A DNA stretch of 64,000 bases from Escherichia coli. Lineage in GTDB: Bacteria; Pseudomonadota; Gammaproteobacteria; Enterobacterales; Enterobacteriaceae. Below are positions 2,424 through 42,798 of the stretch, in pieces. Both the position numbers and the translations under genes were made by a program. The stretch is taken from the NCBI RefSeq assembly GCF_044324875.1, contig NZ_CP172185.1; one strand, written 5' to 3'. The notes under the pieces were generated by a model. It did not search any database. It worked only from the letters and a program-made list of their open reading frames with translations, and was not told where the DNA came from. The first letter of the stretch is position 1. Each line of letters begins with the position of its first letter.

Positions 2424-2752
2424 CAGTTCACCACCTGTTCAAACTCTGCGCTGAACTCAACACGCAGCATACTGACCCGCGACGACCATTTTGCGCAGGT
2501 CACCTTTATCTGCCGCCACTCATAAGGCGGCGTCCACAGAAAGGCCTTCCAGCCCCCGTGCTCAGCCAGAAACGACTCCAGCGCCGTGGCCTCCTCACGG
2601 GGGACAGAAAGCGTCACGCTGTACGTTTTCAGGTCGGCATTCAGCCCGGCAGGCGCTCGCTGGGAATGGCCATCACCAAAGCGCACTTTCCTGACGGAAG
2701 GGGCCGAAGCCACATCCATACCGGGTTTCACTTTCCAGCGGAAGGTCTTCAT
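2423..2752 (-). CDS. M: Minor tail protein M
   Basis: ORF track, 109 aa, lambda gpM-like. Confidence 0.9.
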   Translation of the reverse strand: MKTFRWKVKPGMDVASAPSVRKVRFGDGHSQRAPAGLNADLKTYSVTLSVPREEATALESFLAEHGGWKAFLWTPPYEWRQIKVTCAKWSSRVSMLRVEFSAEFEQVVN

Positions 2753-5310
2753 CGTCCACCTCCGGAGAACAGACCACCATCGCGCATCTGTGCCTGAATT
2801 TCATCACGGGCACCCTTGCGGGCCATGTCATACACAGCCTTCAGCGCCTGTGGTCCAATCTGCCCGTTCGTGCCGTCGTTGTTAATCACCACATGGTTAT
2901 TCTGCTCAAACGTCCCGGACGCCTGCGACCGGCTGTCTGCCATGCTGCCCGGTGTACCGACATAACCACCAGTGGCATAGCCGCGCATCAGCCGGTAGAG
3001 ATTCCCCACGCCAATCCGGCTGGTTGCCTCCTTCGTGAAGACAAACTCACCACGGTGAACAATCCCCGCTGGCTCATATTTGCCGCCGGTTCCTGTGAAT
3101 CCTCCGGTTGAAAAATGGAATTTCGCCGCAGCGGCCTGAATGGCTGTACCGCCTGACACTGATGCGCCACCACCGGCAGCACCGCCAATGGCGCTGCCGA
3201 TACTCCCGACAATCCCCACCATTGCCTGCTTAAGCAGAATTTCTGTCATCATGGACAGCACGGAACGGGTGAAGCTGCGCCAGTTCTGCTCACTGCCGGT
3301 CAGCATCGCCGCCATATTCTGTGCAATTCCATCAAAGGTCTGCGTGGCTGCACTTTTTACCTGCGACATACTGTCCGTGGCGCTCTCTTCCCACTCACTC
3401 CAGCCGGACCTGAGGCCAGCCATCCAGCTCCCGCGAAGCAGGTCTTCAGCCGCCCAGGTCTTTTTCTGCTCTGACATGACGTTATTCAGCGCCAGCGGAT
3501 TATCGCCATACTGTTCCTTCAGGCGCTGTTCCGTGGCTTCCCGCGCTGCCTGCCGGTCAGTCAGCCCCCGGCTTTTCGCATCAATGGCGGCCCGTTTTGC
3601 CCGTTGCTGCTGTGCGAATTTCTCCGCCTGCTGTACCAGTTCGTTCAGCCGTTTCTGGTGTTCAATCTTATCGCCAAGTTCCGCCAGCTGGCGTTTGTAC
3701 TCCAGCGTCTCATCTTTATGCGCCAGCAGGGATTTCTCCTGTGCAGACAGCTGGCGACGTTGCGCCGCCTCCTCCAGTACCGCGAACTGACTCTCCGCCT
3801 TCCACAAATCCCGGCGCTGCTGGCTGATTTTCTCATTCGCTCCGGCATGCTTCTCCAGCATCCGGAGTTCTGCCTGAAGCGTCAGCAGGGCCGCATGAGC
3901 ACTGTCTTCCTGACGATCTCCCGCAGACACCTTCACGCCGGACTGTTTCGGCTTTTTCAGCGTCGCTTCATAATCCTTTTTCGCCGCCGCCATCAGCGTG
4001 TTGTAATCTGCCTGCAGGATTTTCCCGTCTTTCAGTGCCTTGTTCAGTTCTTCCTGACGGGCGGTATATTTCTCCAGCGGTGTCTGCAGCCGTTCGTAAG
4101 CCTTCTGCGCCTCTTCGGTATATTTCAGCCGTGACGCTTCGGTATCGCTCTGCTGCTGCGCATTTTTGTCCTGTTGACTCAGCTGCTCAGCCTTCTTTCG
4201 GGCGGCTTCAAGCGCAAGACGGGCCTTTTCACGATCATCCCAGTAACGCGCCCGCGCTTCATCGTTAACAAAATAATCATCCTTGCGCAGATTCCAGATG
4301 TCGTCCGCTTTCTTAAACGCAGCCTCTGCCTTAATCAGTATCTCCTGCGCGGTATCAGGACGACCAATATCCAGCACCGAATCCCACATGGATTTGAATG
4401 CCCGCGCTGTCCTGTCTGCCCAGGTCTCCAGCGTGCCCATGTTCTCTTTCAGGCGGCGGGTCTGGTCATCAAACCCTTTCGTCGCGGCCTCGTTCGCCGC
4501 CTGCAATGCCCCGGCTTCATCGCCGGAACGCTGCAACTGAGCAACATACGCAATCTGCTCCGCCGTCACGTTATGGAACTGGCGTGCCATCGCTGTCAGC
4601 CCTGACGTCGGGTCTGTGGTCAGCTTCCCGAAGGCTTCAGCGACCTTGTCCACCTCCACGCCGGATGCAGAGGAGAAACGCGCCACACTCTGGCTGATGG
4701 ATGCAATCTGAGCCTCACCGCTTACTCCCGCCTTAACCAGTGCGCTGAGTGACTCGCTGGTCTGGTTAAACGTCAGCCCTGCCGCCTGCCCGGCTCTGGA
4801 CAGGACCAGCATGCGATCTGCCGTCAGACCCGACTGATTGCCGGAAAGGACCAGCGTTTTGTTGAAATCGGACAGGGTTGAGTTGCCCTGATACCAGGCA
4901 TACGCCAGCGCACCGGTCGCCACCGCCAGCGAGGTGGCCCCGACCATCGGCAGGGTGATCGCACCGGCAAGCCCCCTGAACATGGGGATCATCCCGCCGA
5001 AGGAGTCCTTAACCTGCCCCCCCTGTTGCAGCAGGATCAGCCACGGACTTTGCCCGCCTGCAAGCTGCGTGGCCACGTCGGTGAACTGTGCAGGAAGCAT
5101 ACGCATGGCGGCTTTATACTGTCCGACGGAAATCCCCGCTTTCTGTGCAGCCAGCGCCTGCCGGTTCATTGACTGTTCAACGACTGCCGCTGTTTTTTTC
5201 GCATCACTTTCCGTACCGGAAAAATGACGCCTGACTCTGGCCATCTGCTCGTCAAATCTGGCCGCATCCAGACTCAAATCAACGACCAGATCGCCTACCG
5301 GTTCAGCCAT
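2749..5310 (-). CDS. H: Tail tape measure protein H
   Basis: ORF track, 853 aa (same length as lambda gpH), coiled-coil rich, sits between G/T and M. Confidence 0.9.
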   Translation of the reverse strand: MAEPVGDLVVDLSLDAARFDEQMARVRRHFSGTESDAKKTAAVVEQSMNRQALAAQKAGISVGQYKAAMRMLPAQFTDVATQLAGGQSPWLILLQQGGQVKDSFGGMIPMFRGLAGAITLPMVGATSLAVATGALAYAWYQGNSTLSDFNKTLVLSGNQSGLTADRMLVLSRAGQAAGLTFNQTSESLSALVKAGVSGEAQIASISQSVARFSSASGVEVDKVAEAFGKLTTDPTSGLTAMARQFHNVTAEQIAYVAQLQRSGDEAGALQAANEAATKGFDDQTRRLKENMGTLETWADRTARAFKSMWDSVLDIGRPDTAQEILIKAEAAFKKADDIWNLRKDDYFVNDEARARYWDDREKARLALEAARKKAEQLSQQDKNAQQQSDTEASRLKYTEEAQKAYERLQTPLEKYTARQEELNKALKDGKILQADYNTLMAAAKKDYEATLKKPKQSGVKVSAGDRQEDSAHAALLTLQAELRMLEKHAGANEKISQQRRDLWKAESQFAVLEEAAQRRQLSAQEKSLLAHKDETLEYKRQLAELGDKIEHQKRLNELVQQAEKFAQQQRAKRAAIDAKSRGLTDRQAAREATEQRLKEQYGDNPLALNNVMSEQKKTWAAEDLLRGSWMAGLRSGWSEWEESATDSMSQVKSAATQTFDGIAQNMAAMLTGSEQNWRSFTRSVLSMMTEILLKQAMVGIVGSIGSAIGGAAGGGASVSGGTAIQAAAAKFHFSTGGFTGTGGKYEPAGIVHRGEFVFTKEATSRIGVGNLYRLMRGYATGGYVGTPGSMADSRSQASGTFEQNNHVVINNDGTNGQIGPQALKAVYDMARKGARDEIQAQMRDGGLFSGGGR

Positions 5311-5743
5311 ACCGGACTCCTCCTGCGATCCCTTCTGATACTGTCATCAGCATTACGTCATCCTCCGTCATGTCCGCCACATCCGGGGAAGCGGGGATAA
5401 CTTCATTCCCGTCCGGGCCAAAGCGGACACCTCCGGCAAGCCCTGCCGCTTTCTGCATCAGCACATCATCTTCAGGCTCTTCGTCAGCCTCGCGCCGGTT
5501 CAGCAAACTGAAATCCAGCGGATGCATATCCGGATCGCTGAAAAACAGGCTGAGCACGGTGTACGTCAGCCCGGAAAAATGCATATCCAGCAGAACATCA
5601 TGAAAATAATGGGTACTGTAAAAGCGGTGCCAGTCGGCATACTCCGTGGATGACATCCCGGCAAGCATGGCGCGCCAGTCGGGTCGCCCCATCTCGCGCG
5701 CCAGTTTCAGGGCAAAACTCAGCTCACCGTCGAACACTTTCCC
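5303..5743 (-). CDS. T: T segment of tail assembly chaperone G-T fusion (reached by -1 frameshift from G; no independent ATG)
   Basis: ORF 5303..5737 begins VFDGELSF... directly after the slippery heptamer in the -1 frame relative to G. Confidence 0.8.
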   Translation of the reverse strand, partial: GKVFDGELSFALKLAREMGRPDWRAMLAGMSSTEYADWHRFYSTHYFHDVLLDMHFSGLTYTVLSLFFSDPDMHPLDFSLLNRREADEEPEDDVLMQKAAGLAGGVRFGPDGNEVIPASPDVADMTEDDVMLMTVSEGIAGGVRYG

Positions 5744-6141
5744 GCAGAAACAGGCTCTGCAGGCCCGGCGTCCTCTGCCTGGTCAGGGGCATCATTCACC
5801 ACAAACTCAGACATTCCGGACAGACGTAACACCACGTTTTCAGCATGCGAAATTGCCTCCGTGGGCCAGGTGGTAAGCACTTCCTGCTCAATCTGCGTAA
5901 TGGCTTCATTCATGGACAGCAGCTTTGTCTTCTGCGGATGGTTATGCCACAGAGACATCGCCACCAGAAACGCCCCGCCTCTGATAAGATCCTCTACAGA
6001 CACCTGCAGGTTGCCACTGGATTCAGCCTTTTTTTCCTGCTCTTTCAACCAGGCAAGATGCTCAATACGCTGCAGGGCTGACAGTTCAGAAAGCGTGACG
6101 GTCACGCCGTTATGTTCAAATGATTCGGTTTTCAGGAACAT
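5719..6141 (-). CDS. G: Tail assembly chaperone G
   Basis: ORF track, 140 aa, lambda gpG-like, ends ...SAGKCSTVS. Confidence 0.9.
   Translation of the reverse strand: MFLKTESFEHNGVTVTLSELSALQRIEHLAWLKEQEKKAESSGNLQVSVEDLIRGGAFLVAMSLWHNHPQKTKLLSMNEAITQIEQEVLTTWPTEAISHAENVVLRLSGMSEFVVNDAPDQAEDAGPAEPVSAGKCSTVS
5737..5743 (-). promoter_or_regulatory. Programmed -1 ribosomal frameshift slippery site GGGAAAG (G to G-T)
   Basis: Plus strand CTTTCCC = minus strand G GGA AAG, 5 codons before the G stop; -1 frame continues into T. Confidence 0.75.
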
Positions 6142-6156
6142 CGCTGACTCTCCGGA

Positions 6157-6897
6157 TTAACTGGCGGTGACGTTGATTTCTGCAACCGCAGCAAGTTCAC
6201 CATTACCGGATACGACCGGAATGTTGACCCTGCCTGCAGCAACGCCCTTCACGGTGATGGTCATACCACTGACCGACACGGTGGCTTTTGTTTTATCCGC
6301 AGACACCGCACGGAAGCTCTTGTCGGTTGCGCCTTCCGGCTGGAATGCCACGGTCAGCGTGGTGCTCTGCCCTTTCACCACCGAGGTGCTGGCAGGCGTC
6401 ACGGTCATGCCGGTTGCCGCTGTTAGCGTGCTGCGATCTTCTGCCATCGACGGACGTCCCACGTTGGTGACTTTCACCGTGCGGGTGATCACTTCCTTCG
6501 CTGTCACCGCCTTACCGATGCTGCTGACCCAGCCGCGGAACACATCGACCGTGCCGTTCGGGAAGCGGATTTTATAGGCACGGGTATCACCTTCATTAAA
6601 CCACGCCAGCAGCGCCTGCTGCCCCTGCTCTCCGGGCATCCACGCCAGCGTGAAGCTGGTATCTCCGGCGGATTTCTGCCCCTGTCCGGTCGCGGCCCAG
6701 TCCGAATCTTCATCATCGAGATAACTGTCGTCATAGGGCTCAGCGGTCAGTTCGCCGGGCGTCAGGTCTTTAACTTTTGCCAGACGCGACCAGTCAACGT
6801 CTGAAAGCGGGTTCGCATAAGGGTCACCGTTCCCCTTATAAACCCACAGGGTGGTCCCGGCCCCTTTCACCGGTGCCAGAGGATTTGGTGTTGGCAT
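6157..6897 (-). CDS. V: Major tail protein V (Ig-like C-terminal domain)
   Basis: ORF 6157..6927; start at internal Met [22 protein letters not shown]... matching lambda gpV. Confidence 0.9.
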
Positions 6898-10080: not shown

Positions 10081-10116
10081 ATTGTCAAAACCTCATATTG
10101 ATGGTCAGCACTGACT

Positions 10117-29723: not shown

Positions 29724-30726
29724 CGCGCCAATCTGTGCAATCCAGAGCTTCGAAGGTGCGGCCCCGTTCTTCCGGGTCCAGCGGTCCGAATAAACCTCCC
29801 CCATGAGTTCCCACAGCTTCCAGGCTGTTTCCGTCGCTGATAAATCCGTTTTCACGTTCCCACTGCTCACGTGCTGCCCGAATTTCCTGAACTGCCCGTG
29901 ATGCGGTGCCACCTGGTGCTGCTGCATGGTTCACCCCCTTGCTGACTGGTTTAACCTGCGCCCTGACGTGATTTACGTGACGGGCGAATTTCTGCTCCCA
30001 CTGAACCTGTGTGAACACTTTCCCCTCCGCCATCCAGTAATCCCGGAAGGCGGCAAGTTCAGCAGGTGTAAATTCCGGTTCCGGCAAAGCCGCTCCCCAC
30101 AACGCAGCCCGCCGTCGAAAATCCAGCGACGGATGCCAGCCATCGGCCATCGGAAATTTCCCGATGGGTTCACTCATGCCGTCCAGATATCCGGGCTCCG
30201 TTGCCTGCGATGGCGTACCGTTCGACTCACTGGTCGGAGCACTCTCGCGCACGCGCGCGTTATGTGTGGGGTTTAATTCTTTATCTGTATCTTTATTAGT
30301 TGCCTTTGTGTTTGCGTCATGTTCAAACACCACACCAATATTTGTTTGAACACCTGTTAAATCTCTCTCTTGTTTTGTTTGAACATCTGCTTCCTTTCTG
30401 CTTCTTCTGGCCTGAACAGATGCTTTTCCGGCGGCTGATTTTTTGGTTAATTTTTCCCTGACTGATGCCAGATCTTCCTCAATCCGAAGATGCACCCATT
30501 CATCGCCGTTATCGTGAAAAAACTCCCGCAAGGATGGCTCCACATCAGCCCATCGCTCATTAGTCAGACGGGCAATTTTTGCCAGCCTGTTTTTAGGTAT
30601 TGGCTTTCCTGTTTGCCAGTAATTGAACATCAGCAACAAATATGCACCGTGCTCCTCTGCTGATAAATGCATGGTGTCAGCCAGGTAATCAGCGATGTAC
30701 AGTTGCATGTATGGTAATGCGGCCAT
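29716..30726 (-). CDS. Replication initiator/replisome organiser-like protein (DUF1376/YdaU-like N-terminus, DnaT-like C-terminal region)
   Basis: ORF track, 336 aa; N-terminal YMQLYIADYLADTMHLSAEEHGAYLLLMFNYW; position between the YdaT-like and P-like genes. Confidence 0.6.
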   Translation of the reverse strand: MAALPYMQLYIADYLADTMHLSAEEHGAYLLLMFNYWQTGKPIPKNRLAKIARLTNERWADVEPSLREFFHDNGDEWVHLRIEEDLASVREKLTKKSAAGKASVQARRSRKEADVQTKQERDLTGVQTNIGVVFEHDANTKATNKDTDKELNPTHNARVRESAPTSESNGTPSQATEPGYLDGMSEPIGKFPMADGWHPSLDFRRRAALWGAALPEPEFTPAELAAFRDYWMAEGKVFTQVQWEQKFARHVNHVRAQVKPVSKGVNHAAAPGGTASRAVQEIRAAREQWERENGFISDGNSLEAVGTHGGGLFGPLDPEERGRTFEALDCTDWRDD

Positions 30727-32502: not shown

Positions 32503-32751
32503 CAGCTAATCAACAAGGCCAGGGTTGGTAATTAATGACTTCTCCACGGGTGAGGTGGAGTGCGTGCGCCGGACACAGACTGGTTAACGTCGCCTGGAGG
32601 CACCAGGCACCGCATCAACAAAGTTCACTTCGGTGATGAAAGGTAAGAGAAAATGTTGAATGTAGCTATTGAAAACCAGTACGGGTGGAATTATAGTGCA
32701 CCTGCACCTCATAAAGCGGGTGCCGGGATTGCTACCCCGACGTTCACTAAC

Positions 32752-32785
32752 GCGCATAACCGCGCCCAGGCGGTTTTTTTATGCG
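32752..32785 (+). terminator. Candidate intrinsic terminator/regulatory hairpin in the early-left leader
   Basis: CCGC-GCCCAG-GCGG followed by TTTTTTT, nested in a 7-bp outer stem CGCATAA/TTATGCG. Confidence 0.3.
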
Positions 32786-32946
32786 TAATGCACAGCCACA
32801 TTCAGATTATGGTGGGGCGTGCAGGGCAGCCGCAAGGCTGGCCGGGTTCGTTAGTGACCGGTTGTAGCAACCCTGTACGTCTCACCACCCATGAGATTGC
32901 TACCTCCGGTGGTGAGTTAATCAAATTCACTAACGAGGCTGCCATC

Positions 32947-33887: not shown

Positions 33888-35936
33888 ATGAGCACTGATA
33901 AAGAAACTTTTGCGCTATATTGCGAAGCTAAAAATGACAAAGTCAGAAAACGCCTTGGGATTAAAGGTGGTTTTTACTGGACTACAGCAAAAAAATTATC
34001 TGTTGCCATCTCCCGCTGCATTACCGCAATGGATGATAACGATTATGATGAAGACGACTTTAAAAAACCTGTTCGCGTCCATTTGCCCGTTGTTGATGAC
34101 CTTCCACCGGAAGGCGTGTTTGATACCGAATTCTGTAACCGGTATGAAAAAGGCGGCGAAGATGGCATCACAATGATATTTATCGCGCCTCCGCCATCCG
34201 CGCAGGACAAACCAGCCAGCACTGACAACACCAATGTTAATGGCGAAGACATGACTGAGATTGAGGAGAATATGCTTCTGCCGGTTTCAGGTCAGATTCT
34301 GCCTGTTCGCTGGCTGGCGCAACACGGCGGCGAAAAACCAGTAACGCACGTTTCGCGGGATGAACTGCGCTCATTACATAACGCACAGGAAGAAAAACTT
34401 CCCGCCGTTACCGCGCTGGCCATCTCAAATAAAGCAGCGCAACTCGAACCGCTGGAGATTCGGGATTTGTACAAACTGGTGCGGGACACTGACAAAGTTT
34501 TTCCCGCTCCCGTAAATTCAGACCTGGGACTGATGACCTCCTTCATCGAAGCATACCTGGACGCTGACTACACTGATCGTGGTCTGCTTACAAAAGAGTG
34601 GATGAAAGGAAATCGTGTTTCTCGCATCAGTCGCACACCATCCGGCGCTAACGCTGGCGGCGGTATTCTTACCGATCGCGGCGAAGGTTTTGTGCATGAT
34701 AATGCGTCAATGGCATTCGATGTTGCTACAGGAAAACTGGCTCGTTCGATGGATGTGGATATTTACAGCATGCATCCTTCACATACCAGACGTGTTAACG
34801 AAATTATCGCAGAAAATGATCCCTGTTTCTCCGTCTTCCTTAAGGCTTTTCTGAACATGCCAGGCGGGATGGATTATTCCCGCGCCATCGTGGTTGCCTC
34901 CGTGAAAGAAGCACCGGTTGGTATAGAGGCTATGCCCCACCGCGTCACCGAATACCTGAATAAAGTGCTGACCGAAACCGATCATGCCAACCCTGATCCG
35001 GAAATCGTGGATATTGCCTGCGGTCGTTCCTCTGCACCAATGCCGCAGCGTGTAACAGAAGAAGGAAAACAGGATGATGAAAAAAAACCGCAACCGTCTG
35101 GCGCAATGGCAGATGAACAGGCAACTACTAAAACAGTGGAACCGGATACAACTGAACATCATCCGGACACGCAGACGCTGGATGCTCGGCCGCAGGTGAA
35201 TTCTGTTGATGCGAAATATCAGAAACTGCGGGCAGAACTCCATGAAGCCCGGAAAAACATTCCGCCCCAAAATCCTGTCGACGAAGACAAATTGCTGGCA
35301 ACCTCTCGCGGAGAATTTGCTGAAGGGATTAGCGACCAGAATGATCCGAAATGGGTGAAGGGGATTGAAACCCGCGATTCTGTGAACCAGAATCAGCAAG
35401 AAACGGAACAGAACGACCAGAAAGCGGAACAAAACAGCCCAAATGTGCAACGAAAAGAGCCAAAAGCGAAACAATCCGAACCAGTAGCGCAACAGGAACC
35501 GGAAAAAGTCTGCACCGTCTGCGGTCAGAGCGGTGTCGACAACTGTCCTGATTGTGGCGTGGTGATGGGCGACGCAACATACCAGGAAATGTTCGATGAA
35601 GAGAATCAGCCTGAAGTTCAGGAAAATGATCCAGAGGAAATGGAAGGCTCTGCGCATCAGAACAAGGAGAACTCTGGCGGCAATCAGCATCATGCCAGCG
35701 ATAGTGAAACTGGCGAGACGGCAAATCCCTTAATTAAGATAACCAGTCATCACAAATATAAGTCCACAAGCAAAACGTGGTATCACCTGATGATCGACCT
35801 TGAAACAATGGGAACCAACACCAATGCACCCATAGTAGTTATTGGTGCGGTTTTCTTCGACCCGGAAACAGGGGAAATCGGGCCGGTATTTTATATCGTT
35901 ATCAGCCTGACTGACGCAATGAATACAGGGGCTGTT
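33888..35936 (+). pseudogene. RecE/exonuclease VIII-like protein, N-terminal 683 codons; gene interrupted by IS629-like element
   Basis: ORF ends ...[14 protein letters not shown]...DAMNTGAV and takes its stop codon TGA from the first three bases of the IS; the reading frame resumes in phase after the IS. Confidence 0.7.
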
Positions 35937-35990
35937 TGAACCGCCCCGGGAATCCTGGAGACTAAACTCCCTGAGAAAGAGGTAAACAGA

Positions 35991-36317
35991 ATGACTAAAA
36001 ATACTCGTTTTTCCCCCGAAGTCCGTCAGAGGGCGATTCGTATGGTTCTGGAAAGTCAGGGCGAATATGACTCACAGTGGGCGGCAATTTGTTCCATTGC
36101 CCCAAAGATTGGCTGTACACCGGAGACTCTGCGTGTCTGGGTACGCCAGCATGAGCGGGATACCGGAGGCGGTGATGGCGGGCTCACCACCGCTGAACGT
36201 CAGCGTCTGAAAGAGCTGGAACGTGAAAATCGTGAACTGCGCCGCAGTAACGATATCCTTCGCCAGGCTTCCGCTTATTTTGCGAAGGCGGAGTTCGACC
36301 GCCTCTGGAAAAAGTGA
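35991..36317 (+). CDS. IS3-family transposase OrfA
   Basis: ORF track, 108 aa; HTH and leucine zipper. Confidence 0.9.
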
Positions 36318-37204
36318 TGCCACTGCTGGATAAGCTGCGTAAGCTGTACGGGGTCGGACCGGTATGCAGTGAACTACATATTGCCCCGTCAACGTATTAC
36401 CACTGTCAGCAACAGCGACATCATCCGGATAAACGCAGTGCCCGTGCGCAGCGCGATGACTGGCTGAAGAAAGAGATACTGCGCGTATACGATGGGAATC
36501 ATCAGGTATACGGTGTGCGTAAAGTCTGGCGTCAGTTGTTACGGGAAGGAATCAGGGTAGCCAGATGTACAGTGGCGCGCCTCATGGCGGTTATGGGACT
36601 TGCCGGTGTTCTCCGGGGTAAAAAGGTCCGCACTACCGTCAGCCGGAAAGCCGTTGCCGCAGGCGACCGCGTAAACCGTCAGTTTGTGGCAGAACGTCCT
36701 GACCAGTTGTGGGTGGCTGATTTTACTTACGTCAGCACATGGCAGGGGGTCGTCTATGTGGCGTTCATCATTGATGTGTTTGCCGGATACATCGTGGGGT
36801 GGCGGGTCTCATCGTCTATGGAAACGACATTCGTGCTGGATGCTCTGGAGCAGGCGTTATGGGCCCGTCGACCGTCCGGCACAGTCCATCACAGTGATAA
36901 AGGTTCTCAGTATGTATCGCTGGCCTACACACAGCGGCTTAAGGAAGCCGGATTACTGGCATCAACAGGAAGTACTGGTGACTCGTATGACAACGCGATG
37001 GCGGAGAGCATCAATGGCCTTTACAAAGCGGAGGTAATACACCGTAAGAGCTGGAAAAACCGGACAGAAGTGGAGCTGGCCACACTCACGTGGGTGGACT
37101 GGTATAACAATCGACGATTGCTGGAAAGGCTGGGCCATATCCCACCGGCAGAAGCAGAAAAAGCTTATTATGCTTCCATCGGAAACGATGATCTGGCAGC
37201 CTGA
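36314..37204 (+). CDS. IS3-family transposase OrfB (DDE catalytic region; normally expressed as OrfAB by -1 frameshift)
   Basis: ORF track, 296 aa; overlaps orfA by 4 nt. Confidence 0.9.
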
Positions 37205-37246
37205 GTTCACAGATAAAACACTCTCCAGGAAACCCGGGGCGGTTCA

Positions 37247-37706: not shown

Positions 37707-37985
37707 GTGATAGCCATGAGCGAACAGTACCTGATAACGCTCGATGAGTGGAAACCAAAACGGTTCAGTCTCCCAATAACAAACACTACCCTGGTGAAAT
37801 ATGGAAAACTAGGATACATCGTTCCAAGACCACAAAAAATTCGTGGGCGTTGGCTGATAGATCGCCGGGCAGTATTTGTTGGGCCAGGTGAAACAGGAAT
37901 TGCGCCGGAAATTCATACTGGCGATGATGATGCACTGAAGGAGATTTTAACTCATGTCACCGAGGCCACGAAAAAACAGCACTGA
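37707..37985 (+). CDS. xis: Excisionase (Xis-like)
   Basis: ORF track, 92 aa; YLITLDEW...VKYGKLGYIVPRPQKIRGRWLIDRRAV resembles lambda Xis; 3' end overlaps the int start. Confidence 0.6.
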   Translation: MIAMSEQYLITLDEWKPKRFSLPITNTTLVKYGKLGYIVPRPQKIRGRWLIDRRAVFVGPGETGIAPEIHTGDDDALKEILTHVTEATKKQH

Positions 37986-39072
37986 CGTAGCCGGTCTTTA
38001 CGAAAAGTTTGATCGCAGAACTGGCAGGGTTTACTACCAGTATAAAAACCCTGTGACTGGAAAATTTCACGGTCTCGGAACAGACAAATGTAAGGCAGAA
38101 AAAATCGCTTCCACAGCCAATCAGCGAATAGCTGCAGCAGAAGCTGAATATTACATGCGCAAAATTGATGAAAGTCCGTCAGCAACAAAACGTCGGGGTA
38201 TCAGATTAAAGGCATGGGTTGAACGATATCTGAAAATACAGGACACACGACTAAAAAATGGAGATATTGCAGCTACAACCCACAAAGAAAAAGCCCGAAT
38301 GGCTGCATACCTGGTTTCCCGTCTGGGAAACCACCCATTGAAAGAACTGGAAGTAAGAGACTTTGCATTGATACTGGATGAGTGGCTGGATAAAGACATG
38401 GTCAGCACGGCGAGAGTAAACCGTGGATTATGGGTTGATATTTATAAAGAAGCACAGCATGCAGGGGAAGTTCCTCCCGGATGGAATCCTCCGGAGGCTA
38501 CCCGTAAACCGATCCCTAAAGTAAGCAGAGCCAGACTCACCCTGGAAGACTGGCAAAAAATTTACAATGCAACGCCTGAAAGGCACTTTATTCGTAACGC
38601 AATGCTTCTTGCAATTGTTACTGGTCAGCGCCGTGATGACATTTGCCACATGCGTTTTTCAGATGTGTGGAACGAACACTTGCATATCACCCAGGGAAAA
38701 ACCGGAATGCGTCTGGCGTTACCGCTTACACTCCGCTGTGATGCCATTGGGATAACGTTAAAAGAAGTTATTGATGGATGCCGAGACAGAATATTAAGTC
38801 CATACCTAATCCATAGTCGGCACCAGAAACAACCAAAACCGATGAGTAAAGACAACCTGAGCGACTACTTTGCCAAAGCACGGGATCTGGCTGGGATAAT
38901 TCCACCAGCAGGAAAAACTCCTCCCACATTTCATGAACAACGCTCTCTATCAGAACGGCTGTACCGTACGCAGGGTATCGATACAAAAACATTACTGGGA
39001 CATAAAATCCAGGCAACCACCGATCGCTATAACGATACCCGAGGTCAGGAATGGGTTAAGTTGGTTATTTGA
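37954..39072 (+). CDS. int: Tyrosine integrase (lambda Int family)
   Basis: ORF track, 372 aa; C-terminal LLGHKIQATTDRYNDTRG with catalytic Tyr; terminal position next to host DNA. Confidence 0.9.
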   Translation: MSPRPRKNSTDVAGLYEKFDRRTGRVYYQYKNPVTGKFHGLGTDKCKAEKIASTANQRIAAAEAEYYMRKIDESPSATKRRGIRLKAWVERYLKIQDTRLKNGDIAATTHKEKARMAAYLVSRLGNHPLKELEVRDFALILDEWLDKDMVSTARVNRGLWVDIYKEAQHAGEVPPGWNPPEATRKPIPKVSRARLTLEDWQKIYNATPERHFIRNAMLLAIVTGQRRDDICHMRFSDVWNEHLHITQGKTGMRLALPLTLRCDAIGITLKEVIDGCRDRILSPYLIHSRHQKQPKPMSKDNLSDYFAKARDLAGIIPPAGKTPPTFHEQRSLSERLYRTQGIDTKTLLGHKIQATTDRYNDTRGQEWVKLVI

Positions 39073-39238
39073 CAAACACCATATGGAATATCCGTCACCA
39101 TCTCAGGAAAAAAGTGTTGTAAAATGCGTGGCCTTGTTTTGGGGAAAAGTTTTGGAGAGATTTTGGAGAAAGGAAAAAATTGAATAAATTCAAAATCCTG
39201 AAAGTGCTCCACCTTATGAATAAAAAGGTGGAACTCGA
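39073..39238 (+). other. Prophage-host junction (att core somewhere here) with 3'-terminal potB codons (...KVLHLMNKKVELE-stop) ending in ATGA overlap with the potC start
   Basis: Frame ending TGA at 39240..39242 is open back to about 39123 but the potB body is absent, replaced by int. Confidence 0.4.
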
Positions 39239-40033
39239 ATGATCGGTCGACTGCTTCGCGGCGGTTTTATGACCGCTATCTACGCGTACCTGTATATCCC
39301 AATCATTATTTTGATTGTGAACTCCTTTAACAGCTCGCGCTTTGGCATCAACTGGCAGGGTTTTACCACCAAATGGTATAGCCTGCTGATGAACAACGAC
39401 AGCCTGTTACAGGCAGCGCAGCATTCACTAACAATGGCGGTGTTTTCGGCGACGTTTGCTACGCTTATCGGTTCACTGACGGCAGTTGCGCTGTACCGTT
39501 ATCGCTTTCGTGGTAAGCCGTTCGTTAGCGGAATGCTGTTTGTGGTGATGATGTCACCAGATATCGTGATGGCGATTTCGCTGCTGGTGCTGTTTATGCT
39601 GCTGGGTATTCAGCTTGGCTTCTGGTCGCTGCTGTTCTCGCATATCACCTTCTGCCTGCCATTTGTGGTGGTGACAGTGTATTCGCGCCTGAAAGGTTTT
39701 GACGTGCGAATGCTGGAAGCGGCGAAAGATCTCGGTGCCAGCGAATTTACCATTCTGCGAAAAATCATTCTGCCACTGGCAATGCCAGCGGTAGCGGCGG
39801 GCTGGGTGTTAAGCTTTACCCTGTCGATGGACGATGTAGTAGTTTCTTCGTTCGTCACCGGACCAAGCTATGAAATTCTGCCGTTAAAAATTTATTCGAT
39901 GGTCAAAGTCGGCGTATCGCCGGAAGTTAACGCGCTGGCAACCATATTACTGGTGCTGTCGCTGGTGATGGTAATTGCCAGCCAGCTTATTGCTCGTGAT
40001 AAAACGAAAGGTAACACAGGGGACGTTAAATGA
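39239..40033 (+). CDS. potC: Spermidine/putrescine ABC transporter permease PotC
   Basis: ORF track, 264 aa, matches E. coli PotC. Confidence 0.95.
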   Translation: MIGRLLRGGFMTAIYAYLYIPIIILIVNSFNSSRFGINWQGFTTKWYSLLMNNDSLLQAAQHSLTMAVFSATFATLIGSLTAVALYRYRFRGKPFVSGMLFVVMMSPDIVMAISLLVLFMLLGIQLGFWSLLFSHITFCLPFVVVTVYSRLKGFDVRMLEAAKDLGASEFTILRKIILPLAMPAVAAGWVLSFTLSMDDVVVSSFVTGPSYEILPLKIYSMVKVGVSPEVNALATILLVLSLVMVIASQLIARDKTKGNTGDVK

Positions 40034-42294: not shown

Positions 42295-42798
42295 TTATTG
42301 ATAGTGTTTTATGTTCAGATAATGCCCGATGACTTTGTCATGCAGCTCCACCGATTTTGAGAACGACAGCGACTTCCGTCCCAGCCGTGCCAGGTGCTGC
42401 CTCAGATTCAGGTTATGCCGCTCAATTCGCTGCGTATATCGCTTGCTGATTACGTGCAGCTTTCCCTTCAGGCGGGATTCATACAGTGGCCAGCCATCCG
42501 TCATCCATATCACCACGTCAAAGGGTGACAGCAGGCTCATAAGACGCCCCAGCGTCGCCATAGTGCGTTCACCGAATACGTGCGCAACAACCGTCTTCCG
42601 GAGCCTGTCATACGCGTAAAACAGCCAGCGCTGGCGCGATTTAGCCCCGACATAGCCCCACTGTTCGTCCATTTCCGCGCAGACGATGACGTCACTGCCC
42701 GGCTGTATGCGCGAGGTTACCGACTGCGGCCTGAGTTTTTTAAGTGACGTAAAATCGTGTTGAGGCCAACGCCCATAATGCGGGCAGTTGCCCGGCAT
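42295..42798 (-). CDS. insB: IS1 InsB
   Basis: ORF track, 167 aa. Confidence 0.9.

Follow-up and report, generated by a model that had tools for sequence, protein, structure and literature searches.

A lambda-type programmed −1 frameshift site at the G–T tail assembly chaperone genes of an Escherichia coli lambdoid prophage

The G–T junction and the prophage that carries it

In a 64,000-nucleotide stretch of Escherichia coli DNA (contig NZ_CP172185.1 of assembly GCF_044324875.1; the window), we found gene G, which encodes the tail assembly chaperone gpG, overlapped near its 3′ end by the −1 frame that continues as T. The G/T pair lies between the major tail protein and tape-measure genes in the order V-G-T-H, all on the minus strand (Table 1). 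Gene G has a GGAGAG Shine–Dalgarno (SD) sequence ahead of its start ATG at 6141, and the C terminus of its product reads ...PVSAGKCSTVS. From 5743 to 5719 on the minus strand, the junction is GGGAAAG TGT TCG ACG GTG AGC TGA, in which five sense codons separate the heptamer from the G stop. Codon GGG of the T frame starts at 5743, one base ahead of the G-frame codon GGA at 5742, and moving from the G frame to the T frame is therefore a −1 shift. The open T frame spans 5782 to 5303, and translation across the junction reads ...CFCGK VFDGELSFALKLAREMGRPDW.... Base 5737 is read twice in the predicted fusion coding sequence, join(6141..5737, 5737..5303) of the minus strand, which encodes 279 aa, consisting of G residues 1–135 and 144 T-frame residues. 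At its other end, the T segment overlaps the start of gene H, and the strong SD sequence of H, AGGAGGAG, lies inside the T coding sequence.

These observations agree with the first-pass annotation of this DNA, which had placed a conserved G–T frameshift at 5719–5743, with GGGAAAG five codons before the G stop and the −1 frame running on as the T ORF (VFDGELSF...). The coordinates, the count of five codons and the open frame all stood; the strand, which had been left unstated, is the minus strand. The description of the site as a known lambda feature was also borne out, as the site is identical to that of lambda and both G and T match lambda equivalog models. GGGAAAG is itself given as the lambda slippery sequence (PMC3296357 Table 1; PMC7618472).

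Table 1. Features of the G–T locus and other elements of the window
Feature	Coordinates	Strand	Support and remarks
Gene V, major tail tube protein	6157..6897	−	246 aa; directly upstream; PF16461 + Big_2; SD-supported ATG at 6897
Gene G, tail assembly chaperone gpG, zero frame	5719..6141	−	140 aa; ORF, translation, Pfam, NCBIfam
Second in-phase A_AAA_AAG in G	6034..6028	−	codons 36–38 (EKK)
Slippery heptamer G GGA AAG	5737..5743	−	X_XXY_YYZ phase with G; sequence, phase, stop distance, lambda identity, conservation
G stop codon TGA	5719..5721	−	five codons past the heptamer; would be bypassed by shifted ribosomes
T segment, −1 frame	5303..5737	−	144 codons (VFDGELSF...GGVRYG) + TGA; translation, Pfam, TIGR01715
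Predicted RNA fold, candidate frameshift stimulator	5659..5729	−	outer helix (5729..5722 with 5666..5659) enclosing GC-rich hairpin (5702..5669)
ATGGCTGA overlap of T stop and H start	5303..5310	−	T stop TGA (5305..5303), H start ATG (5310..5308); sequence
Gene H, tape measure protein	2749..5310	−	853 aa; directly downstream; Pfam PF06791 + PF09718
tRNA-Arg(TCT) and tRNA-Met(CAT)	20,978–21,131	−	adjacent; prophage
isrK Hfq-binding RNA beside C4 antisense RNA	32,704–32,892	+	Rfam, 62.7 and 78.2 bits, respectively; prophage early region
Prophage 3′-5′ exonuclease ORF	33888..35939		683 aa
IS3-family element	~35,940–37,210	+	inside prophage
orfA of IS3-family element	35991..36317	+	HTH_Tnp_1
orfB of IS3-family element	36314..37204	+	rve
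ALIL frameshift pseudoknot	36272–36388		Rfam, 116 bits; in IS3-family element
Prophage integrase	37954..39072		Arm-DNA-bind_1 + Phage_integrase domains
insB of IS1	42,295–42,798	−	chromosomal flank; left end of the IS1 element unmapped
A_AAA_AAC frameshift site of IS1	42741..42735	−	classic IS1 site
In-phase G_GGA_AAG inside insB	42466..42460	−	

Matches to protein families covered both parts of the predicted fusion. G matched the Pfam family of lambda tail assembly chaperone G (PF06894, E=4.9e-52), and the G part of the fusion matched the NCBIfam equivalog TIGR01674 with 188.9 bits against a cutoff of 74.45. The T-frame ORF matched minor tail protein T (PF06223, E=2.1e-14), and the T part of the fusion matched the equivalog TIGR01715 with 185.9 bits (cutoff, 77.35); this match begins with T residue 5, ahead of any T-frame ATG. 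For the upstream gene V, we observed that the longest ORF begins at ATG 6927 (256 aa, the form given in the older lambda annotation) and lacks an SD sequence (+0.3 kcal/mol). The ATG at 6897 (MPTPNPL...) has an SD duplex of −5.9 kcal/mol, and the homologous start is used by RefSeq.

The lambdoid prophage extends from position 1 to ~39,100 of the window, and the remainder is E. coli chromosome (potCD, cobB, nagK, lolCDE, ycfT, mfd, ndh and others). Its integrase gene abuts potC (interval with potC, 37,954–40,033), and in a relative, NZ_CM135151, this site is likewise occupied by a prophage whose integrase is the same. Even the best complete E. coli genome matches the chromosomal flank at only 98.5% identity. 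An isrK–C4 RNA pair lies in the prophage early region, and the two adjacent prophage tRNA genes have no obvious bearing on the G–T shift because neither encodes tRNA-Lys or tRNA-Gly.

Two insertion sequences in the window carry frameshift sites of their own. The IS3-family element, inserted in the prophage early region, contains a match to the Rfam ALIL frameshift pseudoknot, its orfA ends TGG AAA AAG TGA, and it is the second programmed −1 frameshift cassette of the window. The prophage exonuclease ORF ends at the boundary of this element; the corresponding gene of a relative encodes 812 aa, and the last ~500 nt of the exonuclease gene were not found downstream of the insertion. With this IS3-family insertion, the prophage may not be inducible. 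The chromosomal flank contains an IS1 element with its classic A_AAA_AAC site. The G–T, IS3-family and IS1 sites thus represent three separate programmed −1 frameshift systems in the window. We also observed an in-phase G_GGA_AAG inside insB, at which a −1 shift would lead to 12 codons and then a stop; it corresponds to the candidate cluster G_GGA_AAG_1 of Sharma et al.

Conservation of the shift site and the status of T

The bare heptamer GGGAAAG is not enriched in the window, which contains 5 copies against an expectation of 8.0 ± 3.1. Only the G–T copy combines a long in-phase upstream ORF, a stop five codons on and a 144-codon extension in the −1 frame. The copy at 30024 was rejected, as it resembles a shift site only because a real gene occupies the '−1' frame. 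The prophage structural genes, 3737 codons in all, contained 8 in-phase X_XXY_YYZ heptamers (0.0021 per codon). At this rate, ~0.045 would be expected over the 21 codons in which a shift could productively join G to T.

For comparison with relatives, we gathered loci from 11 annotated phage records, 2 RefSeq E. coli chromosomes and 80 IMG/VR contigs; the resulting set of 93 covers the loci that include the region and counts the window itself, the one exception being a contig that is incomplete at its 5′ end. A shift-prone heptamer was present five codons before the G stop in all 93 loci (85 GGGAAAG, 4 AAAAAAG and 4 GGAAAAG). Because the site is kept in 93/93 relatives, a chance origin is ruled out. 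Six further homologues with 32–69% T identity also had a shift-prone motif with a lysine codon in the A site at the same place. In CP-1639 and Stx2_KH16-043, this motif is A_AAA_AAG, five codons before the stop. In Klebsiella Kp4865-4, Salmonella Fels-1, the mEp460-like Ayreon (E. coli) and Vibrio HY01 (32–54% T identity), the motif is G_GAA_AAG or C_CCA_AAA, its position with respect to T is unchanged, and the G stop follows after one codon, not five. The lysine codon in the A site is the element shared by all of the heptamer variants. Reporter measurements in E. coli gave shift rates of 0.28, 3.8 and 43% for G_GGA_AAG without a stimulator, with IS911 stimulators and with the IS3 stimulator, respectively, and 0.29, 4.3 and 39% for A_AAA_AAG in the same series (PMC4066793 Table S3). 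As their measured shiftiness is nearly equal, the two heptamers are interchangeable. NNA_AAG tetramers more generally are established −1 sites in E. coli (PMC5009743).

The T frame contains no ATG, GTG or TTG from its upstream stop as far as the heptamer; its first possible initiator is a GTG at 5737, formed with the last base of the heptamer. We scored the ATG, GTG and TTG candidates of the T frame by their duplex energy against the 16S anti-SD sequence. The GTG (T codon 1) scored −2.2 kcal/mol and the ATGs at codons 16, 24 and 28 scored −1.5, −1.5 and +1.9 kcal/mol, compared with a background median of −2.8 kcal/mol and with −6.6, −10.3, −5.9, −5.6 and −10.7 kcal/mol for genes G, H, V, U and Z. 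None of these first four T-frame candidates had an SD match better than background. The first-pass annotation had stated that T has no ATG or ribosome-binding site of its own; this held to the extent that no start exceeded the SD background, although the statement had passed over the GTG that directly follows the slip. An independent T start with a ribosome-binding site, which it had named as the observation that would speak against a frameshift, did not emerge from the anti-SD scoring.

T could nevertheless be an independent gene translated from the GTG at 5737, the heptamer being a coincidence. The annotated 144-aa T coding sequence begins precisely with this GTG, and T is annotated in this way in lambda J02459 and in two RefSeq E. 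coli chromosomes. However, the duplex of the GTG is no stronger than the background median, whereas those of the neighbouring genes range from −5.6 to −10.7 kcal/mol, and conservation sets the GTG apart from the heptamer: the codon at this position is GTC, GTA, GCG, GCA or GCC, none of which is a start, in 40 of the 93 loci, and the heptamer is kept in every one of them. In those 40 loci, the first possible initiator is 10–24 codons into T, and the T protein is conserved from the slip site onward. Published lambda experiments also give the product as a gpGT fusion (PMC5009743, PMC3296357). We consider an independent T gene to be very improbable. Termination at the G stop followed by reinitiation at the in-frame ATG 5692 (T codon 16) would instead produce an N-terminally shorter T. 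The position of this ATG, 27 nt downstream of the G stop, is compatible with such a restart, and T is annotated from it in PhiR12_1, VT1-Sakai and 1720a-02. By contrast, the ATG has no SD sequence (−1.5 kcal/mol) and is not conserved, being replaced by TTC (Phe) in the phi80, HK225, mEp213 and Klebsiella types, and T residues 5–15, which lie ahead of it, are conserved as protein and covered by TIGR01715. Reinitiation would also leave the invariant heptamer unexplained, and its probability appears to be exceedingly low.

A change of frame by transcriptional slippage of RNA polymerase on a run of A or G was also weighed, given that the AAAAAAG variant of some relatives is a run of six A. Polymerase slippage needs homopolymer runs far longer than three, and the site in the window has runs of three G and three A only. 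Furthermore, what is conserved is the codon-phased X_XXY_YYZ or A_AAG pattern, which is a signature of tRNA re-pairing. In lambda, the gpG:gpGT ratio changes upon loss of tRNA-Lys U34 thiolation (PMC3296357), indicating that the event takes place on the ribosome. Slippage by the polymerase is thus extremely unlikely to account for the frame change. We conclude that G and T, tail assembly chaperone genes of the lambda type, are almost certainly joined at this locus by programmed −1 ribosomal frameshifting, and we saw no feature of the sequence that contradicts this reading.

This conclusion bears on annotation rather than on discovery. The correct products of the locus are the 279-aa gpGT fusion and the 140-aa gpG, and a free-standing 144-aa T is not the right call; the earlier recommendation that T should not be annotated as an independent gene was well founded, as both J02459 and RefSeq/PGAP do annotate it so. 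In J02459, T is an independent coding sequence (10115..10549, 144 aa) that starts from the GTG, and RefSeq/PGAP gives a stand-alone T from the GTG in both of the E. coli chromosomes inspected (n=2). These entries reflect an annotation convention and are not evidence. In other phage records, T is given a start at the internal codon-16 ATG or further downstream, and among the records compared only phi80 FN582354 has a joined gpG-T coding sequence together with a 'slippery sequence for -1 translational frameshift'. As judged from two RefSeq records and from the presence of the G–T region in 3702 of 5426 complete E. coli genomes, stand-alone annotation of T may be widespread in this species.

Candidate stimulators of the shift

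We found no SD-like stimulator in the interval 6–17 nt 5′ of the heptamer, where the upstream GAGCCTGTTTCTGC gives a duplex of −2.2 kcal/mol. Downstream, the RNA is predicted to form a fold whose outer helix begins 7 nt past the heptamer. Inside this helix lies a GC-rich hairpin formed by the T codons for LAR and DWRA (Table 1). The 89-nt fold had a minimum free energy of −40.8 kcal/mol (z=−2.9). The result varied with the length folded: 60 nt was unremarkable (z +0.5) and 89–100 nt was unusual. The same architecture was predicted in the Stx2a-type, VT1-Sakai, HK225, phi80 and Klebsiella relatives, and z ranged from −2.0 to −4.1 over six lineages. Fels-1, Ayreon and Vibrio HY01 fold differently downstream of the site; in Vibrio HY01, the LAREFGQ codons form a perfect 8-bp hairpin.

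The alignment of relatives contained one compensatory pair in this fold (G-C to A-U), seen only in the 4 sequences of the phi80 group. RNAalifold gave a covariation term of −0.79, and covariation fell short of significance. Synonymous divergence was 0.271 in T codons 10–27 and 0.268 in the rest of T, and synonymous suppression at the stem codons was not significant (permutation P=0.12). A scan of positions 5300–6200 against Rfam (E<=10) returned no match beyond chance-level snoRNA, miRNA and lncRNA models. A predicted structure had already been flagged for the gpG cluster by Sharma et al. in 2014 ('Structure Y, RVSS N'; PMC4066793 Table S4). In the lambda reviews and in the papers citing the primary work, no stimulator of the G–T shift has been demonstrated. 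Sequences downstream of the lambda G–T site may already have been examined by Levin et al. in 1993.

The bare G_GGA_AAG shifts at only 0.28% (3.8% with IS911 stimulators), and lambda's ~4% therefore seems to need context. A contribution of the 3′ context to this ~4% is plausible. That the fold predicted at 5729..5659 is a genuine stimulator of moderate strength that sets the ~4% G–T rate is a tentative proposal, and on balance we lean against it.

Proposed mechanism and comparison with known systems

The G–T frameshift at this locus is an already known, textbook feature of lambda. It was reportedly described by Levin, Hendrix and Casjens in 1993 and by Xu, Hendrix and Duda in 2004, 2013 and 2014. 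For this prophage, the shift itself, its rate and the roles of the proteins are taken from the lambda experiments. On that analogy, most ribosomes would read G GGA AAG in frame and end five codons later, producing gpG (140 aa). A few percent would slip back by one base, with the P-site tRNA-Gly moving from GGA to GGG and the A-site tRNA-Lys from AAG to AAA; these ribosomes would miss the G stop and read 144 T-frame codons, producing gpGT (279 aa). The G part would bind the tape-measure protein H and the T part would recruit the tail-tube protein V, a gpG:gpGT ratio of ~30:1 would be needed for correct tail assembly, and neither protein would be present in the virion.

In lambda, about 4% of ribosomes shift at GGGAAAG (PMC3296357), and the gpG:gpGT ratio is ~30:1, with G binding H and T binding V (PMC5009743). 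gpG and gpGT are absent from mature virions, and both products are required for tail assembly (PMC5009743, PMC4493119). Virion proteomics, which the first-pass annotation had proposed as a check, would fail to detect gpG or gpGT because neither is packaged. As established for lambda, tail assembly depends on the gpG:gpGT ratio that this site determines, and the site also ties phage yield to host tRNA-Lys modification.

The closest known system is lambda itself, which shares with the window the heptamer G GGA AAG, the five codons to TGA, the 144-codon T frame, the overlap of the T stop with the H start and the order V-G-T-H. The 60 nt around the slip site (~30 nt on each side) are identical, as is the T protein (100% identity; 99.1% in DNA). 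By contrast, G is a diverged allele with 83% aa and 87.9% nt identity, and the prophage adjoins potC and has a non-lambda early region. Over the 951-bp G–T region as a whole, identity is 93.9% to lambda J02459 9652-10602 and ~98% to phages Turner, PhiR46_1 and IdasGreatGrand. DNA identity to lambda is 86% for G codons 1–114, 95.1% for the last 27 G codons and 99.1% for T. G having diverged while T is near-identical to lambda, there is a mosaic joint inside G, and the slip site falls within the block that is conserved with lambda.

The G allele in the window also differs from that of lambda in containing a second in-phase A_AAA_AAG (Table 1), which is present in 15 related loci ('AWLKEQEKKAESS') and absent from lambda. 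A −1 shift at this position would give AAA AAA GGC TGA, a near-immediate stop, and no unusual structure was found downstream of it (z −0.8). The bare-motif rate of A_AAA_AAG is ~0.3% (PMC4066793 Table S3). This second motif is probably an incidental, slightly wasteful site.

In the phi80, N15 and HK225 type (FN582354, NC_019717), G and T are homologous to those of the window and the shift site lies at the same position. This type differs in its heptamer, G GAA AAG, which departs from the strict X_XXY_YYZ form and depends on the tetramer A_AAG, and in its shorter T of 113–115 aa. The chaperone of the E. coli O157 Sakai prophage (ECs1801 type; cluster A_AAA_AAG_25 of Sharma et al. 2014) belongs to the same gene family with the site at the same position, but has A AAA AAG in place of G GGA AAG, with nearly equal measured shiftiness. 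Sharma et al. listed their cluster G_GGA_AAG_4 as 'gpG, phage tail protein; [true]', with SD N, Structure Y and RVSS N (PMC4066793 Table S4). The site in the window resembles their gpG and ECs1801 clusters in having no upstream SD, a predicted downstream structure and no significant synonymous-site suppression. The dnaX and IS3-family cassettes have a proven upstream SD and/or downstream stem-loop or pseudoknot as stimulators and reach 40–80% shifting, unlike the G–T site, which has no upstream SD, a candidate downstream fold only and, by the lambda figure, ~4% shifting. What the G–T site has in common with these cassettes is the class of heptamer, which ends in A_AAG and is read by the single E. 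coli tRNA-Lys.
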